From an uncultured Syntrophaceae bacterium (GTDB lineage: Bacteria; Desulfobacterota; Syntrophia; Syntrophales; UBA2192): 46,180 nt of DNA. Made by a program: the position numbers and the translations under genes. The DNA is taken from NCBI GenBank assembly GCA_964478885.1, contig CAYZKT010000002.1, positions 1 through 46,180 of the forward strand. The letters are read 5' to 3'. The notes beneath the pieces are model-generated. The model was not told where the DNA came from, ran no database searches, and saw only the letters and a list, made by a program, of their open reading frames with translations. Shown piece after piece: positions 25,329-45,286 of this stretch. How positions within the stretch are numbered: the first letter of the stretch is position 1; each line of letters opens with the position of its first letter.

Positions 25329-25344
25329 AGCAAGAGGGGTGCCA
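25329..25344 (-). promoter_or_regulatory. sigma54 (-24/-12) promoter, perfect consensus, facing the DapB-like gene and TAXI-TRAP genes
   Basis: Minus strand reads TGGCAC-CCCTC-TTGCT (consensus TGGCAC-N5-TTGCW), about 180 nt upstream of ATG 25150. Confidence 0.6.
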
Positions 25345-25938: not shown

Positions 25939-27174
25939 CTAGTCCACCAGGGTGTAGGCCGACTCGCTGTGCTGGGTCAGGTCCAGACCGACGATCTCCT
26001 TGGTCTTTTCCACCCGGACGCACATCAGGGAGTCGACGAGCTTGAAGATGGCCCAGGTCATGGCCGCCGCGAAGACAACCGTCACCAGCACGAGCATGCA
26101 CTGCACCCCGAAGAGCTGGGCGTTGCCGAAGAGCAGCCCGTTGGCGCCGGCCTCGTTGACGGCCTTCTCGGCGAAAAGACCCGTGGCCAGCGTTCCCCAG
26201 ATGCCGCCGACGCCGTGGATTCCGAAGACGTCGAGCGAATCGTCATACTTGAAGAACGACTTCACCCTGGCGATGGCGAGGTAGCAGAAGACGCTCGCGA
26301 ACATCCCGATGAAGATGGCGTTCATGGGGTTGACGAAGCCGCAGGCCGGGGTGATCGCGACCAATCCTGCCACCGCACCGGACACGGCGCCCAGGGCGGT
26401 GGGGGCCTTGTGCGTCATCCACTCGATGACGGCCCAGGTCAGCCCCGCCGCCGCCGTGGCGACCGTCGTGGTCACGAAGGCGTTGGCCGCAAGCTCGTTG
26501 GCCGCCAGGGCGCTCCCCGCGTTGAACCCAAACCAGCCGAACCACAGCAGGGCGCCTCCCAGCACGGTGAAGGGAAGGTTGTGCGGCGTGAAGGTCCTCT
26601 TCTCATACCCGATTCTCCGGCCGATCAGCAGGGCGAGCACCAGGGCCGAGATGCCCGAGCTGGTGTGGACCACGATCCCCCCGGCGAAGTCGAGAGCCCC
26701 GAGGTCCCGGAGCCATCCGCCCATTCCCCAGACCCAGTGTCCGAGCGGGTTGTACACGAAGGTGGCCCAGAGGACGGTGAACGCCAGGAACGCGGAGAAC
26801 TTGATCCGCTCGGCGTAGGTCCCGATGATCAGGGCCGGCGTGATCACCGCGAACATGCATTGGAAAATCATGAAGGCGTAGTGCGGGATCGTGGCCGCGT
26901 AATCGGTGTTGGGCTGCATACCCACGTTCCGCAGCCCGGCCCAGTCGAGGCCGCCGATGATCCCCTTGTACGCGTCGGGGCCGAAGGTCAGGGAGTAGCC
27001 GTAGAGCACCCACTGCAGCGTGATGACGCAAAGGATGATCAGGCACTGCATCAGGATGGAAAGGACGTTTTTCCTTCTCACGAGCCCGCCGTAGAAAAAG
27101 GCCAGTCCGGGGATGGTCATGAGAAGAACGAGTGCCGACGATATGAGCACCCATGCGGTGTCGCCCGAGTTCAT
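25939..27174 (-). CDS. amt: ammonium transporter (Amt family)
   Basis: 411 aa. GDTAWVLISSALVLLMTIPGLAFFYGGLVRRKN, DFAGGIVVHTSSG, GFNAGSA, GIHGVGGIWG. Confidence 0.95.
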   Translation of the reverse strand: MNSGDTAWVLISSALVLLMTIPGLAFFYGGLVRRKNVLSILMQCLIILCVITLQWVLYGYSLTFGPDAYKGIIGGLDWAGLRNVGMQPNTDYAATIPHYAFMIFQCMFAVITPALIIGTYAERIKFSAFLAFTVLWATFVYNPLGHWVWGMGGWLRDLGALDFAGGIVVHTSSGISALVLALLIGRRIGYEKRTFTPHNLPFTVLGGALLWFGWFGFNAGSALAANELAANAFVTTTVATAAAGLTWAVIEWMTHKAPTALGAVSGAVAGLVAITPACGFVNPMNAIFIGMFASVFCYLAIARVKSFFKYDDSLDVFGIHGVGGIWGTLATGLFAEKAVNEAGANGLLFGNAQLFGVQCMLVLVTVVFAAAMTWAIFKLVDSLMCVRVEKTKEIVGLDLTQHSESAYTLVD

Positions 27175-27483: not shown

Positions 27484-27870
27484 CTAGCCCGTGCTCTGTT
27501 TTTTCCGATCGTCGATGTCGCCCGGGTACATCATGGCGTCCTGGCCTCGCTCCCGCGTCCGTATCCGGATCACCTCCTGGACGGGCGTGACGAAGATGAG
27601 ACCGTCTCCCGGTTCACCCGTGTGCGCCGATTTGAGGATGGCCTCGATGGCGGGCTCGAGGTTGCGTTCGCTCAGGACGATGTTGACCTGGATCTTGGGC
27701 AGCATGTTTACCTGGTAGGTACCCGCTCGACCGACCAGCTGTATGCCTCCCTGGCGGCCATGGCCCCGCACCTCGAAGGTGTTCAGTCCCATGATGCCGA
27801 TCTCCTTCAGGGCGTCTATGACGTCATTGACCTTGTCTTCGCGAATGATGGCTTCGACTTTTTTCAGCAT
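27484..27870 (-). CDS. P-II family protein, second amt-linked paralogue with a C-terminal extension
   Basis: 128 aa. MLKKVEAIIREDKVNDV...GHGRQGGIQLVGRAGTYQV...TGEPGDGLIFV, plus an extra tail ERGQDAMMYPGDIDDRKKQSTG. Confidence 0.9.
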   Translation of the reverse strand: MLKKVEAIIREDKVNDVIDALKEIGIMGLNTFEVRGHGRQGGIQLVGRAGTYQVNMLPKIQVNIVLSERNLEPAIEAILKSAHTGEPGDGLIFVTPVQEVIRIRTRERGQDAMMYPGDIDDRKKQSTG

Positions 27871-27933: not shown

Positions 27934-29160
27934 TCAGGAGTAGGATCTCTCCCCGTGTGAGCTGATGTCCAGCCCGACTTCCTCCTCCATGGGTTGGACC
28001 CTCAGGCCGATACTGGCGTTCAGCGCCTTGGCGAGCACGTAGGTCACGCAGAAGGAGTAGACCATGGTGACGGCGATGCCGAGAAACTGGATGCCCAGCT
28101 GTGCAGGGTTTCCGAAGAAGAGGCCGTTTGCGCCGCCGCCGTTGACGGACACGGTGGCGAAAAGGCCGGCGGCAACCATGCCCCAGGTGCTGGAGATACC
28201 GTGGCAGGCCCAGACGTCGAGCGATTCGTCGAGCTTGCGCTTGTCCCGGAAACGGATGGCGTAGTAGGAAAGCGGTGCCGCCACGGCCCCCACGACCATG
28301 GATGCCATGGGGGTGATGAAGCCCGAGGCCGGGGTGACGGCGGCCAGGCCGACGACCATTCCGGTAGCGATGCCCAGGGTGCTGGGCCTTCCGTCGAGCC
28401 AGGAGAGAACCATCCAGACCAGTCCCGCCGTGGCCGCGGAGGTATTAGTCGTCAGCAGGGCGTTGACAGCGACGCCGTTTGCGGCCAGGGCGGAGCCGGC
28501 GTTGAAGCCGAACCAGCCCACCCACAGCAGACCCGTTCCCAGCACGGTCAGGGGGATGTTATTCGGCTCCATCGGGGCCGATCCGAATCCTTTGCGGGGG
28601 CCGATGACCAGGGCAAAGGCCAGGGCGGAAAAGCCGGCCGCGATGTGAACCACCGTCCCGCCGGCAAAGTCGAGGACACCCATGTTCTTGAGCCAGCCGC
28701 CCTGTCCCCATACCCAGTGGCACAGGGGATCGTAGACCAGCGTGGCCCAGAGGAGGCTGAACAGCAGGAAGCTCTTGAAGCGCACGCGCTCCACGAAGGC
28801 GCCCGTGATCAGGGCCGGCGTGATGACGGCAAACATCATCTGGAAGGCCGCGAAGAGCCCCTGGGGAATCGTTTTCGCGTAGTCGGGGTTGGGCGCCGCG
28901 TCGACCCCCTGGAAGCCGATGAAGTTCAGGCCGCCGATGAGGCCGTTGATCGAGGTGCCGAACGCCAGCGAGTACCCGTAGGCCACCCATTGCACCCCGA
29001 TGAGGGCCATGAAGACGTAACTCAGGGTCAGCGTGGAGAGGACGTTTTTCCTGCGTACCATGCCGCCGTAGAAGAACGCGAGGCCCGGCGTCATCAGGAG
29101 AACCAGAGCGCAGGAGACAAGAATCCAGGCTGTATCGCCCGTGTCGATTTGAGGAACCAT
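27934..29160 (-). CDS. amt: ammonium transporter (Amt family), second copy
   Basis: 408 aa. GDTAWILVSCALVLLMTPGLAFFYGGMVRRKN, DFAGGTVVHIAAG, GFNAGSA, ACHGISSTWG. Confidence 0.95.
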   Translation of the reverse strand: MVPQIDTGDTAWILVSCALVLLMTPGLAFFYGGMVRRKNVLSTLTLSYVFMALIGVQWVAYGYSLAFGTSINGLIGGLNFIGFQGVDAAPNPDYAKTIPQGLFAAFQMMFAVITPALITGAFVERVRFKSFLLFSLLWATLVYDPLCHWVWGQGGWLKNMGVLDFAGGTVVHIAAGFSALAFALVIGPRKGFGSAPMEPNNIPLTVLGTGLLWVGWFGFNAGSALAANGVAVNALLTTNTSAATAGLVWMVLSWLDGRPSTLGIATGMVVGLAAVTPASGFITPMASMVVGAVAAPLSYYAIRFRDKRKLDESLDVWACHGISSTWGMVAAGLFATVSVNGGGANGLFFGNPAQLGIQFLGIAVTMVYSFCVTYVLAKALNASIGLRVQPMEEEVGLDISSHGERSYS

Positions 29161-29198: not shown

Positions 29199-29214
29199 TG
29201 CAAGACGCCGGCCA
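29199..29214 (-). promoter_or_regulatory. candidate sigma54 promoter for the second amt-PII unit (imperfect -24 box)
   Basis: Minus strand reads TGGCCG-GCGTC-TTGCA. GG/GC spacing is correct. About 40 nt upstream of ATG 29160, with AT-rich DNA upstream. Confidence 0.4.
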
Positions 29215-29510
29215 TTTAAATTCCCTCTACAATACAAAGACTTATCGAATAAGCGGCGACATTTGATAGTACGGTAATGTATGATTATGAAAAAATAACA
29301 CGAATATGTTCATTTGGACTGGTAATGGCACGTTCAGGAGGGAAAAACAGGGTCGGAAAAGTGTGAGAAGTGCCGGGGCTGACGGTCATCCCCTCTCGTT
29401 TAAGGGGGGAGAGAGGACAGGCTCGATCGATCCCGTTCGGCCGGGAAAGGCCGGAGGCGGGATAGGGCACCGTACGTGCCCCGGCACCGATCGTTCTTCT
29501 CGTTTTGGCG

Positions 29511-29699
29511 CTAGCCCTTTTCAGGCAGGGGCCGTTCGTAGTGCACGGCGGCGAGCCCCAGGATCGACAGCGCAACAACCACGGCCAGCAGAGGGTAGGT
29601 GAACCATGCCGTCAGTCCAAGCACCTTGATGACGGCGATGGCGCCGATCGCGCACAGGAGGACGAGAATCTGCAGGAGAATGACCTTCATGGTTTTCAT
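29511..29699 (-). CDS. small (62 aa) two-TM membrane protein, hypothetical
   Basis: MKTMKVILLQILVLLCAIGAIAVIKVLGLTAWFTYPLLAVVVALSILGLAAV. AAAGGTGA lies 6 nt upstream of the ATG. Confidence 0.5.
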   Translation of the reverse strand: MKTMKVILLQILVLLCAIGAIAVIKVLGLTAWFTYPLLAVVVALSILGLAAVHYERPLPEKG

Positions 29700-29883
29700 C
29701 GCGTTTCACCTTTCTTGGCCGTGTCTTTCCCAGGCCGACTGTCATCGTCGTCCCCGGCGGCCGCTTCAACCGTCTCCAGAGGCGATTGGATTTGGAATCG
29801 CCTCGATTTTTCGGTTCGTCCGGCCGCTGCGGAACCGTTTCCATGCCGCGGCAATCCTCTACACTCCGTTCGCGCAGCCATAT

Positions 29884-30085
29884 AAAAAGCCGCCGGCCGA
29901 ACAAACTGTCCGACTGGCGGCCCGACCATGCCTTCTATCCCTTCAGGACTGACCCGCAGGCCCATCCCGAACCCTCACCCCCCATGCATCGCGGGATGCA
30001 CGGCTTGCCATCGCGTGTAGTGTCGACTTTACCGTTCCGGGAAGAGATCCTCCTTCGTGTGAGCGGCCGTGGTAATGCGATCCAC
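29884..30085 (-). ncRNA. candidate structured RNA B (sRNA or leader element) ending in an intrinsic terminator; 5' end not defined
   Basis: Terminator: 14-bp stem (one mismatch, two G-U pairs) at 29889-29921 plus UUUUU (29884-88). Shares blocks with RNA A (see findings). No credible ORF. Confidence 0.35.
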
Positions 30086-30350
30086 AAAAAAAACCGCCAG
30101 TCGAACACGAGGTTCGACTGGCGGCCCGACCATGCCTTATCTGTCACCTCCGGAACGCAGCATCGTTCCGGACCCGAAAGCTATTCAATTTCGGCTTGTT
30201 CTTACCACACCCGCAGGCACACGACAAGAACAAATTGCGTGAATCCCGACGAACGCGGCAGCGGGTTCCTTCTCAATATTTGTTCCGCTTCGCGGCGCTC
30301 CTCGGTCACCTGCTATTCCAAATCGGTCTCGTCAAAAAGGGTTAGATGCG
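30086..30350 (-). ncRNA. candidate structured RNA A (sRNA or leader element) ending in an intrinsic terminator; 5' end not defined
   Basis: Terminator: perfect 13-bp stem CCGCCAGTCGAAC / GTTCGACTGGCGG (30094-30124) plus 8 U (30086-93). Internal hairpin at 30149-30172. No credible ORF. Confidence 0.35.
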
Positions 30351-30358
30351 AGTCACTT

Positions 30359-30460
30359 GAACGGATGGAAGTTAGGAAGTTGAGAAGCTCGGAGAAGCCG
30401 GCAGCATGCAATTTGTTTTCAATTCATCCAAGCTTCACAATTTTTCAGCTTCTCAACTTC
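30359..30460. repeat. about 100-bp GAAG-repeat palindromic element immediately 3' of purF
   Basis: gaagttgagaagct (30376-30389) and agcttctcaacttc (30447-30460) form a perfect 14-bp inverted repeat. Shares sequence with 11651-11760 and 24585-24604. Confidence 0.75.
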
Positions 30461-30481
30461 TTTCTCGGCGCGCATCGCGCG

Positions 30482-31942
30482 CTAAGAAATGAAGGGGAGA
30501 TCGTCCTGCTGCGGTTCGCAGGATAGCCTGTCCTCCATGCAGAACTTGTCGAGCTCTTCCTCGACGGGGATGGGGTACTTGCCGGAATAGCAGGCCAGGC
30601 AAAAGCTCCGGGGGTCCATCTGGGTGGCCTCCACCATGCCCCTGATGCTGAGGTAGTAAAGGGAGTCGAGCCCGATGAATCGTCCCACGGCGTCCACCGC
30701 GCCCTTCTCGGCCGCGACGAGTTCCCCCTTCGAGGAGAAGTCGATCCCGTAGGGGCAGGGGTTGCGGGTGGGGGGGCAGCTGATGGCCATGTGGATTTCC
30801 TTCACGCCGATCTGCCGGAGGTTGCGGATGCGGTTGCGGCTCGTGGTGCCCCGGATGATGGAGTCCTCGACGATGAGGACGCGCTTTCCCTGCAGGAGAG
30901 GCTTGACGGGGTTGAGCTTCACGCGCACGCCGAAGTCACGGATCGCCTGGGAAGGCTGGATGAACGTGCGGCCCACGTAGTGGTTGCGGATCATGCCCAT
31001 CTCGAAGGGCAGCTTGCTCTCCTCGGCATAACCGAGTGCGGCATAATTCCCCGAGTCGGGAAAGGGCATGACGAGGTCCACGTCGGGGCAGTACTCGCGG
31101 GCCAGCTGGTGGCCGAAGCGCTTGCGGCAGAGGTAGACGTTCTGGCCGAAAATGTGGCTGTCGGGTCGCGCGAAGTAGACAAGCTCGAAGATGCAGTGGG
31201 CGGGCCGGACCTTCCGGAACGGCTTGAGGCTGCGCATCCCCGTGTTGTCGACGATGACGATCTCGCCGGGCTCCACGTCGCGCACGTAAGTGGCGCCGAG
31301 CAGATCGAAGGCGCAGGTCTCCGAGGCGACAACGGTCGCCTCGCCGAGCCTGCCGATCGCCAGGGGCCGGAACCCCCGCGGGTCGCGGGCGGCGATGACC
31401 TTGTCCTTGGTCAGCATCACGAGGCAGTAGGACCCTTTCACCTTCCCGAGCGCCTTGACTAGGGCCTCGTCGAAGCCGTTGCGGAGGTGGTGGGCCATGA
31501 GGTGGACGACGATCTCGCTGTCCATGGTGGACTGGAAGATGGAGCCCTGATTCTCGAGCTGCGAGCGGAGCTGCCGGGCGTTGATGAAGTTGCCGTTGTG
31601 ACCCAGGGCGTAGGGCTCGCCGGCGTGGTGGACCAGGAAGGGCTGCGCGTTCGACAGGGTCGAGGAGCCCGTCGTGGAGTAGCGGACGTGCCCGATGGCC
31701 ATGTGTCCCGGGAGTTTTTGAAGCGTGTTCTCGTGGAACACCTCCGAGACCAGGCCCATCCCTTTGTGCTCGTGCACGGTCTTTCCGTCGGCCGTGGTGA
31801 TGCCGGCGCTTTCCTGTCCGCGGTGCTGAAGCGCGAAGAGCCCGAAGTACGTCAACCGTGCCGCCTGTTCGTGGCCGTGCACGGCAAAGATCCCGCACTC
31901 CTCGCGGGGCCCGCCCTCACTCATCCAGTCATTGAGCATCAT
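30482..31942 (-). CDS. purF: amidophosphoribosyltransferase
   Basis: 486 aa. CGIFAVHGHEQAARLTYFGLFALQHRGQESAGI, PRPP-binding VEDSIIRGTT, C-terminal Cys ligands (CLACYSGKYP). Confidence 0.95.
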   Translation of the reverse strand: MMLNDWMSEGGPREECGIFAVHGHEQAARLTYFGLFALQHRGQESAGITTADGKTVHEHKGMGLVSEVFHENTLQKLPGHMAIGHVRYSTTGSSTLSNAQPFLVHHAGEPYALGHNGNFINARQLRSQLENQGSIFQSTMDSEIVVHLMAHHLRNGFDEALVKALGKVKGSYCLVMLTKDKVIAARDPRGFRPLAIGRLGEATVVASETCAFDLLGATYVRDVEPGEIVIVDNTGMRSLKPFRKVRPAHCIFELVYFARPDSHIFGQNVYLCRKRFGHQLAREYCPDVDLVMPFPDSGNYAALGYAEESKLPFEMGMIRNHYVGRTFIQPSQAIRDFGVRVKLNPVKPLLQGKRVLIVEDSIIRGTTSRNRIRNLRQIGVKEIHMAISCPPTRNPCPYGIDFSSKGELVAAEKGAVDAVGRFIGLDSLYYLSIRGMVEATQMDPRSFCLACYSGKYPIPVEEELDKFCMEDRLSCEPQQDDLPFIS

Positions 31943-31979: not shown

Positions 31980-35307
<3,328 letters not shown>

Positions 35308-35315
<8 letters not shown>

Positions 35316-43762: not shown

Positions 43763-45286
<1,524 letters not shown>

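Follow-up and report, generated by a model that had tools for sequence, protein, structure and literature searches.

Two tandem units of the nhaA-I riboswitch class upstream of a gene for a small membrane protein in an uncultured Syntrophaceae bacterium

Introduction

The purF and amt genes of an uncultured Syntrophaceae bacterium are separated by a gap which carries two similar RNA units in series, each ending in an intrinsic terminator. This arrangement raises the question of what the units are and whether they serve the nitrogen genes beside which they lie. The DNA analysed, here termed the window, is 46,180 nucleotides (nt) long and represents one entire contig (CAYZKT010000002.1, GenBank assembly GCA_964478885.1) of a Syntrophales genome, from a group once placed in the Deltaproteobacteria. 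Based on the sequence alone, the original prediction had proposed a duplicated small RNA (sRNA) or a tandem leader or riboswitch-like element, embedded in a nitrogen-assimilation cluster.

We report that both units are tandem copies of a known class of cation riboswitches (nhaA-I / Li+-I / Na+-II). We consider it quite likely that they act as two ON switches in series within the leader of a gene for a 62-amino-acid (aa) membrane protein, that the trigger is most likely Na+, and that amt is transcribed mainly from its own sigma-54 promoter.

The nhaA-I motif was described by Weinberg et al. (2017, PMC5737381), who noted occasional adjacent copies. The majority of its members were shown to sense Li+ and to act as ON switches upstream of nhaA (White et al., 2022, PMC9646797). 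The same study describes rare terminator variants, restricted to Deltaproteobacteria and located upstream of hypothetical genes, among which the variant from Desulfobulbus propionicus is a Na+-activated anti-terminator that was named Na+-II. It has C instead of U at the loop-closing pair (position 54 of the D. propionicus construct), which was tied to selectivity for Na+ over Li+, and the C54U mutant (M4) responded in vitro to Li+, Na+, and NH4+. The core mutations M1-M3 abolish function, and the validated Li+-I aptamer binds NH4+ poorly (PMC9646797).

Both units match the nhaA-I family

When the whole window was scanned against Rfam at gathering thresholds, a single match was obtained. This was to nhaA-I (RF03057, gathering score 37 bits) and spans the full model (positions 1-55). 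A permissive Rfam scan of the gap added a second full-length match to the same family (E = 0.0019 in a 1-kb search). The Rfam search which had been suggested as a check thus assigns both units to nhaA-I, unit 2 with a score below the gathering threshold. The core elements GGGU, AGG, and CGGGCC occur in both, and these columns are invariant in an alignment of 41 sequences (see below). The features of the two units are as follows.

30117-30175, minus strand: aptamer 1, nhaA-I class (Rfam RF03057, 42.5 bits)
30175-30172, minus strand: GGGU of aptamer 1
30171-30164 with 30157-30150, minus strand: helix P1 of aptamer 1
30149-30147, minus strand: AGG of aptamer 1
30132-30129 (UGGU) with 30122-30119 (GCCA), minus strand: helix P2 of aptamer 1
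30128-30123, minus strand: P2 loop CGGGCC of aptamer 1
30086-30127, minus strand: terminator 1, 13 perfect pairs, extendable by G.U pairs, then U8
29913-29974, minus strand: aptamer 2, nhaA-I class (Rfam RF03057, 28.3 bits, E = 0.0019)
29884-29923, minus strand: terminator 2, 14 pairs with one A.C mismatch and two G.U pairs, then U5
30199-30227, minus strand: tentative sigma-70-type promoter of the leader, read from the sequence

The tandem, paralogous, terminator-ended units that had been predicted for the purF-amt gap are present on the minus strand at the predicted positions, 204 nt apart in the same orientation and with no plausible coding sequence between them. In the 46-kb window, there are exactly two copies of the 24-nt shared block AAGGCATGGTCGGGCCGCCAGTCG (29911-29934 and 30115-30138). 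No third copy was detected even when allowing 3 mismatches, and the chance expectation is 0. This block corresponds to P2 plus its flanks. With P2, terminator, and U-run included, the similar stretch is 57 nt long (82% identity), which indicates that the units are true paralogues. The previously noted hairpin at 30149-30172 is real and represents helix P1 of aptamer 1. The sequence acccgcaggc, also listed as a shared feature, did not hold up: it is out of register (spacing 257 vs. 204), being inside the P1 loop in unit 2 but upstream of the aptamer in unit 1, and its recurrence is thus probably due to chance.

Terminator 1 was found as described, with a perfect 13-bp stem (arms 30112-30124 and 30094-30106), a 5-nt loop, and 8 U (30093-30086). 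For terminator 2, the predicted 14 pairs (within 29889-29921) and 5 U (29888-29884) are present, but the stem is interrupted by the internal A.C mismatch. In aptamer 2, P1 is longer (12 positions) and has one G.A mismatch, and AGGG replaces AGGU; P2 and its loop are the same as in aptamer 1 and every core nucleotide is kept.

P2 and the terminator are mutually exclusive in both units. The 5' arm of terminator 1 (30127-30112) includes the loop and the 3' arm of P2, and in aptamer 2 the P2 loop and 3' arm are likewise shared with terminator 2. The minimum-energy fold of each full unit consists of P1 plus the terminator (-45.7 kcal/mol for unit 1, -45.5 kcal/mol for unit 2), and shuffled sequences fold less stably than each full unit (z = -3.8). 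The 4-bp P2 is thermodynamically unstable when the aptamer is folded alone. A shared arm combined with a P2 that is weak by itself is the design expected of a ligand-stabilised anti-terminator. Together with the nhaA-I matches, this competition favours the riboswitch part of the original prediction. Its sRNA part finds no specific support, the one sRNA match (to NsiR1) being sub-threshold, and was not retained.

Two other readings of the region were rejected. The open reading frames (ORFs) that cross the units, at 29786-30526 on the plus strand and at 29935-30147 and 29696-29965 on the minus strand, have no Pfam match, and frame-breaking differences between the units in close relatives (indels of 1, 2, and 3 nt) speak against coding, in agreement with the earlier view that these ORFs are junk. 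A dispersed repeat was dismissed as the 24-nt block and the core GGYCGGGCCGCY each occur only twice in the window.

Conservation and covariation

Eight related metagenomic contigs were found via the small ORF that follows the units. The longer ones retain the order carB-purF-(aptamer, terminator, aptamer, terminator)-small ORF-amt-glnK-amt-glnK; in the shorter ones, two of which start inside the leader, the order is only partially represented. Wherever the sequence is present in the relatives, aptamer 1 scores 41.3-42.2 bits and aptamer 2 scores 32.5-34.6 bits. In one of these relatives (locus L001), a G-C pair takes the place of the G.A mismatch that aptamer 2 has in P1, and a U.G pair in terminator 2 is C-G in relatives; both changes preserve the structure. 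The locus thus carries two complete units (aptamer plus expression platform) in one leader, and both are kept in the relatives.

For a wider comparison, one genome per GTDB species was scanned for a CGGGCC loop with its 3' arm repeated in a terminator, which yielded at least 120 loci. Among the matches listed, at least about 35 are genuine terminator-coupled nhaA-I aptamers and about two thirds are false positives; these frequencies come from a sample of convenience, as the scan required a terminator able to pair with the 3' arm of P2. Aptamers from the genome scan were aligned with those of the window, L001, D. propionicus, and three validated Li+-I RNAs (41 aptamers). P1 and P2 are paired in 91.6% of the cells of this alignment, compared to 34-52% when the partners are slid, and 12 of the 15 pairs have changed in both partners. 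A covariation score of 0.532 was obtained, vs. 0.233 for shuffled alignments (0 of 500 shuffles reach the observed value), with the caveat that the scan pattern itself selects for the P2 3' arm. The covariation test proposed along with the original prediction thus supports both helices.

One class of false positives is represented by c-di-GMP-I riboswitches (49-62 bits), which accounted for all eight cases checked (L013, L023, L043, L055, L057, L062, L081, L120). In these, the aptamer end and the terminator happen to read CGGGCCGCCAG...CUGGCGG followed by a U run.

Terminator-coupled nhaA-I aptamers were also encountered outside the former Deltaproteobacteria: in metagenome-assembled genomes of Omnitrophota (L027, L031, L074, L103, L104, L123), in Nitrospirota/Nitrospiraceae (L087), in Planctomycetales (L072, L089), and in Treponemataceae/Spirochaetaceae (L068, L098). 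Nearly all have U, not C, at the selectivity position. At loci with annotated downstream genes, they precede MscS, trehalose synthase, SPFH, or Rnf/Nqr genes.

Another tandem was observed in Desulfobacterales bacterium GWB2_56_26 (L121, 3589-3757, minus strand). At the loop-closing pair, both of its nhaA-I aptamers (45.0 and 48.9 bits) have C as in Na+-II. Each is equipped with a terminator, and a CitMHS/NhaD-like transporter gene is located downstream.

The probable target gene

The minus strand is the sense strand of the neighbourhood of the gap, and the genes are arranged as follows.

31980-35315, minus strand: carB
30482-31942, minus strand: purF
29700-30481, minus strand: purF-amt gap, which holds both RNA units
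29511-29699, minus strand: small membrane ORF (62 aa)
27934-29160, minus strand: amt, first copy
27484-27870, minus strand: PII/glnK gene
25939-27174, minus strand: amt, second copy

The 62-aa ORF is most likely the gene controlled by the tandem riboswitch. It is preceded by a ribosome-binding site (AAAGGTGA) and has two hydrophobic segments that resemble two transmembrane helices. A homologue profile with the invariant residues A20, I24, K25, and L29 finds 29 protein clusters; neither the ORF nor any of these clusters matches a Pfam or NCBIfam family. The three best remote matches among all fetched loci are small ORFs in L121, L060, and L119. A codon comparison with the relatives is low-powered and shows 4-5 synonymous vs. 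9 non-synonymous changes. By codon position, the differences are 4/1/7 when compared to L001 and 5/1/6 when compared to L002.

The combination of aptamer and small ORF is not confined to this lineage. Homologues that have an nhaA-I aptamer upstream show 27-45% identity and belong to other lineages. In L060, L129/L130, L131/L132, and L119, aptamer and terminator are located directly upstream of the homologue, with aptamer scores of 43.7-52.1 bits. Because the aptamer is found upstream of homologues in independent lineages, riboswitch and small ORF represent a recurrent unit. Genes coding for a P-type ATPase, OtsA/OtsB, MgtE, and MscS are found near the homologues of L129-L132. The more distant homologues in L133, L134, and L121 have the small ORF without an aptamer.

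Unannotated proteins of 57-69 aa with two hydrophobic segments would thus represent a recurrent direct target of cation riboswitches. Their frequent location beside P-type ATPase, trehalose, MgtE, and MscS genes provides a handle on the class of "hypothetical" targets which was left unexplained in the original paper on these variants.

In L133 (3341-4372) and L134 (2927-5438), the distant homologues of the small two-helix protein form arrays of 4-8 consecutive small ORFs beside TetR-family genes, with no nhaA-I aptamer. Some further small ORFs were observed. In L130-L132, the small-ORF gene is followed by an ORF of 32 aa. In L124 (Desulfobacterium sp. N47), a 29-aa hydrophobic mini-ORF (MLKGIVFLVIFIAILGVPFIIAILKGKKK) is located between the riboswitch terminator and nhaA, and similarly tiny hydrophobic ORFs follow the aptamers in L068, L098, L143, L149, and L237.

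Elsewhere, terminator-type aptamers precede genes for MscS channels, Na+/H+ exchangers (one with TrkA domains), an Rnf/Nqr subunit, a P-type cation ATPase, SPFH (HflK/C-like) pairs, trehalose-6-phosphate synthase, NhaA, and a CitMHS/NhaD-like transporter. Additional downstream genes code for pentapeptide, DUF4412, and DapB-like proteins, and for several tiny membrane ORFs. The genes downstream of terminator-type aptamers are a sodium and osmotic-stress set. The DapB-like gene (DapB_N plus DapB_C) is the first gene after the aptamer in L097 (Smithellaceae). It has been reported that dapB can be found downstream of c-di-AMP riboswitches which themselves follow DUF1646 (Na+-I) RNAs (Weinberg et al., 2017, PMC5737381), and the gene in L097 may point to a connection with an osmolyte pathway.

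Probable independence from the nitrogen genes

The implied link between the units and the surrounding nitrogen-assimilation cluster is not supported. The amt genes have a promoter element of their own, which is outside the riboswitch unit.

29199-29214, minus strand: sigma-54 -24/-12 element TGGCCGGCGTCTTGCA, 39 nt upstream of the amt start

The window contains three matches to the sigma-54 -24/-12 pattern, compared to 0.49 expected. The element upstream of amt is invariant in the relatives. At about 250-290 nt upstream of it are overlapping GC-rich palindromes (GGTGCCGGGGCACGTACGGTGCCC, 29465-29488, minus strand) followed by an AT-rich stretch, which together resemble an activator site combined with a bending region. 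The other two matches are located at 25329-25344 on the minus strand (TGGCACCCCTCTTGCT), downstream of the second amt-glnK pair, and at 44731-44746 on the plus strand (TGGCCCTCGTGTTGCT).

Decisive in this respect is a sister lineage (L135-L137), whose PurF falls into the same 90%-identity cluster as that of the window. It has the order glnA-carA-carB-purF, a 608-nt spacer, and amt-glnK-amt-glnK. These loci keep the sigma-54 promoter (the element itself is retained in L135) and the ribosome-binding site of amt. They have no aptamer, no small ORF was called on the sense strand, and the spacer has no similarity to the small-ORF region. The existence of this cassette-free sister locus indicates that riboswitch and small ORF form an autonomous cassette of about 900 nt that was inserted or deleted beside amt.

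Conversely, amt was found neither at the other terminator-type loci (at least about 35 among the matches listed) nor at the loci around small-ORF homologues, and a tblastn search for amt across all fetched loci retrieved only the lineage of the window itself (L001-L008). With an independent and conserved sigma-54 promoter, a sister locus that lacks the cassette, and the same riboswitch/ORF pair elsewhere without amt, amt is probably not part of the riboswitch unit and the location beside it looks coincidental. This is a cautionary case, as adjacency to nitrogen genes is not enough to make an RNA a nitrogen regulator.

Two further differences between the window and its relatives concern the gap. 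An insertion of about 85 nt at about 29735-29820, between terminator 2 and the ribosome-binding site of the small ORF, is restricted to the window and missing from all 8 related contigs. It carries a 9-bp hairpin (29779-29804) which is terminator-like on the plus strand only. At approximately 30350-30481, just past the purF stop codon, is a stretch that L001-type relatives lack. Within it are the two arms (30376-30389 and 30447-30460, 57-nt spacer) of a perfect inverted repeat of 14 bp, and a part of the stretch (CTTCTCAACTTCCTAACTTCCATCC) can be recognised in the sister locus L135. This stretch might represent a small mobile or repeat element, or else a 3' structure of purF.

Proposed mechanism

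Transcription of the leader probably starts from the candidate promoter at 30199-30227, with a start site that would lie about 20-25 nt upstream of aptamer 1. The promoter consists of a -35 box TTGTCG (30227-30222), a 17-nt spacer, and TGG-TAAGAA with the -10 box at 30204-30199. In the relatives, the -35 box is conserved or nearly so while the -10 box is one base off (TAAGCA).

We infer from the overlap of P2 and terminator that both units would be ON switches. In the absence of ligand, or when cation levels are low, the strong terminator would form and transcription would end at 30086 or 29884. Once the cation is bound, the aptamer would hold the weak 4-bp P2 (UGGU/GCCA around CGGGCC) and withhold the 5' arm of the terminator, which would permit read-through. 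Transcripts that pass both terminators would allow the small membrane protein to be made. As both terminators must be passed, the two gates in series would be expected to result in a steeper, more switch-like ("pseudo-cooperative") response than a single unit, in analogy to what is established for tandem riboswitches. The physiological trigger would most likely be raised intracellular Na+ as encountered under salt or osmotic stress, with Li+ as the alternative. The downstream amt-glnK genes would be driven mainly by their own sigma-54 promoter.

Ligand and alternative explanations

Several observations weigh against this reading. With 28.3 bits, aptamer 2 is under the Rfam gathering score. The candidate leader promoter is weak by consensus and was not called by a consensus scanner. 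No canonical intrinsic terminator is found between the small ORF and amt, and some minor read-through into amt is possible. Both units read GGUCGGGCC and hence have U instead of the Na+-II C at the loop-closing pair, so that selectivity for Na+ cannot be claimed from the sequence. The in vitro response of the D. propionicus C-to-U mutant to Li+, Na+, and NH4+ (PMC9646797) points in the same direction, and judged from this mutant a broad response to Li+, Na+, and possibly NH4+ is plausible in vitro for the units of the window.

Among the 41 aligned aptamers, the loop-closing pair is U.G in 37 and C-G in 4. The first P1 pair is C-G or U-A in all 38 aligned terminator-type aptamers, including that of D. 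propionicus, and G-C in the three validated Li+-I RNAs and the Rfam consensus. Metagenomes were scanned for aptamers with U (GGUCGGGCC) and AGGU, which gave at least 120 loci with at least 25 genuine aptamers (ORF calling was crude). Eight of the aptamers among the matches listed have G-C as the first P1 pair; none of these eight has a terminator according to a crude pattern test, and two precede NhaA. Taken together, the use of a terminator as platform, the taxonomic group of the host, the hypothetical nature of the target, the associated genes, and the first P1 pair suggest that Na+ is the most likely ligand, with Li+ or NH4+ as possible alternatives. As terminator-coupled nhaA-I aptamers mostly have U and extend beyond the Deltaproteobacteria, the one-nucleotide rule for Li+ vs. 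Na+ needs to be re-tested.

Alternatively, both aptamers might sense NH4+ and co-regulate amt-glnK-amt-glnK by read-through past the small ORF. The tandem is directly upstream of amt-glnK, the small ORF and amt are not separated by a canonical intrinsic terminator, and both aptamers carry the U that broadened the response of mutant M4 to Li+, Na+, and NH4+. We consider this very improbable, however, given that amt is equipped with a conserved sigma-54 promoter of its own, preceded by palindromes and an AT-rich spacer, that the same operon and promoter occur in L135-L137 with neither riboswitch nor small ORF, and that amt is missing near the other terminator-type loci (at least about 35 among the matches listed) and near the fetched small-ORF homologues. 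An NH4+ ON switch would induce uptake when ammonium is plentiful, which is the opposite of normal amt control, and the validated Li+-I aptamer is a poor NH4+ binder. Slightly less probable still, and argued from the mutant, is the idea that the U-type terminator aptamers of this Syntrophales lineage are natural NH4+ switches, coupling the small protein and read-through amt-glnK to intracellular NH4+. If true, this could be an ammonia-stress response in an ammonium-rich habitat and would be the first natural NH4+-sensing riboswitch. The units might also be two paralogous trans-acting sRNAs, perhaps related to nitrogen stress, each ending at its own terminator and base-pairing with other mRNAs. 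Each unit would indeed give rise to a separate, terminated transcript, Rfam shows a weak match to the cyanobacterial nitrogen-stress sRNA NsiR1 (RF02399) at 30086-30146 (23.6 bits, E = 0.04), and terminated riboswitch transcripts that act in trans are known from other systems. The NsiR1 match, however, is far below the threshold of 39 bits and is carried by the terminator stem and the U-run. The conserved nucleotides are those of the riboswitch core (GGGU, AGG, CGGGCC), the helices covary as an aptamer, and the units are always in sense orientation directly upstream of a gene. A riboswitch with the same architecture has been validated experimentally as cis-acting (PMC9646797), and we consider a pair of sRNAs very improbable.

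It is also improbable that unit 2 is a decaying duplicate, with unit 1 alone functional and unit 2 a constitutive terminator or attenuator, or that both units merely end purF transcription. Unit 2 is sub-threshold, has AGGG for AGGU, and has a G.A mismatch in P1, all of which would fit decay. However, all relatives conserve it (32.5-34.6 bits), L001 has a proper pair in place of the P1 mismatch, and the U.G pair in the terminator has changed to C-G. Moreover, AGGG also occurs in the well-scoring aptamers of L016, L072, L089, and L121, and a constitutive terminator would silence a conserved small ORF. We thus prefer two functional nhaA-I switches in series over these alternatives.

Comparison with known systems

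The Na+-I riboswitch (DUF1646 motif; White et al., 2022, PMC9337991) resembles the proposed system in that it switches transcription on in response to a monovalent cation, and the genes it regulates, for Na+/H+ antiporters and osmotic stress, overlap with those found here. Its fold and consensus are unrelated, and the window has no Rfam match to DUF1646. Pseudo-cooperative tandems such as the thiamine pyrophosphate (TPP) riboswitches of Bacillus anthracis (Welz & Breaker, 2007, cited in PMC9646797 and PMC9481103) likewise combine two aptamer-terminator units in one leader. They differ in ligand class, and the units of the window are predicted to be ON rather than OFF switches.

With Li+-I (RF03057; for example, the nhaA leaders of Pseudomonas monteilii and Ralstonia eutropha), the units share the U.G closing pair (GGUCGGGCCGCC) and the occurrence in series, since doublets and one triplet with terminators have been published. 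Six Li+-I doublets and one triplet were reported (PMC9646797; tandem-riboswitch review of 2022, PMC9481103), while Na+-II was not seen in tandem according to the review (PMC9481103). Canonical Li+-I RNAs are located in front of nhaA, with the ribosome-binding site as their presumed point of action, whereas the units of the window have terminators and a target other than nhaA. In addition, P1 of Li+-I opens with G-C (GGGUGC...GCAGGU), unlike the C-G or U-A found here.

The closest counterpart is Na+-II. The D. propionicus template (GGGGUCC-P1-GGAGGU...UUAGCCGGGCCGCUAACCGAAGC-loop-GCUUCUGUUAGCGGCC-U8), which as published ends ahead of its downstream gene (PMC9646797), aligns element for element with unit 1 of the window (GGGUCC-P1-GGAGGU...UGGUCGGGCCGCCAGUCGAAC-loop-GUUCGACUGGCGG-U8). 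They differ by the loop-closing pair (U.G in the window, C-G in Na+-II), by the shorter P2 of 4 bp, and by the presence of two units in series. They agree in fold, core nucleotides, the P1 start and end (GGGUCC...GGAGGU), and a terminator platform that uses the P2 loop and 3' arm. Both are found in hosts of the former Deltaproteobacteria, and the 62-aa target has no known family, which parallels the hypothetical gene of Na+-II. The two units thus are an addition to a known family in a known arrangement, the doublet already published for Li+-I.

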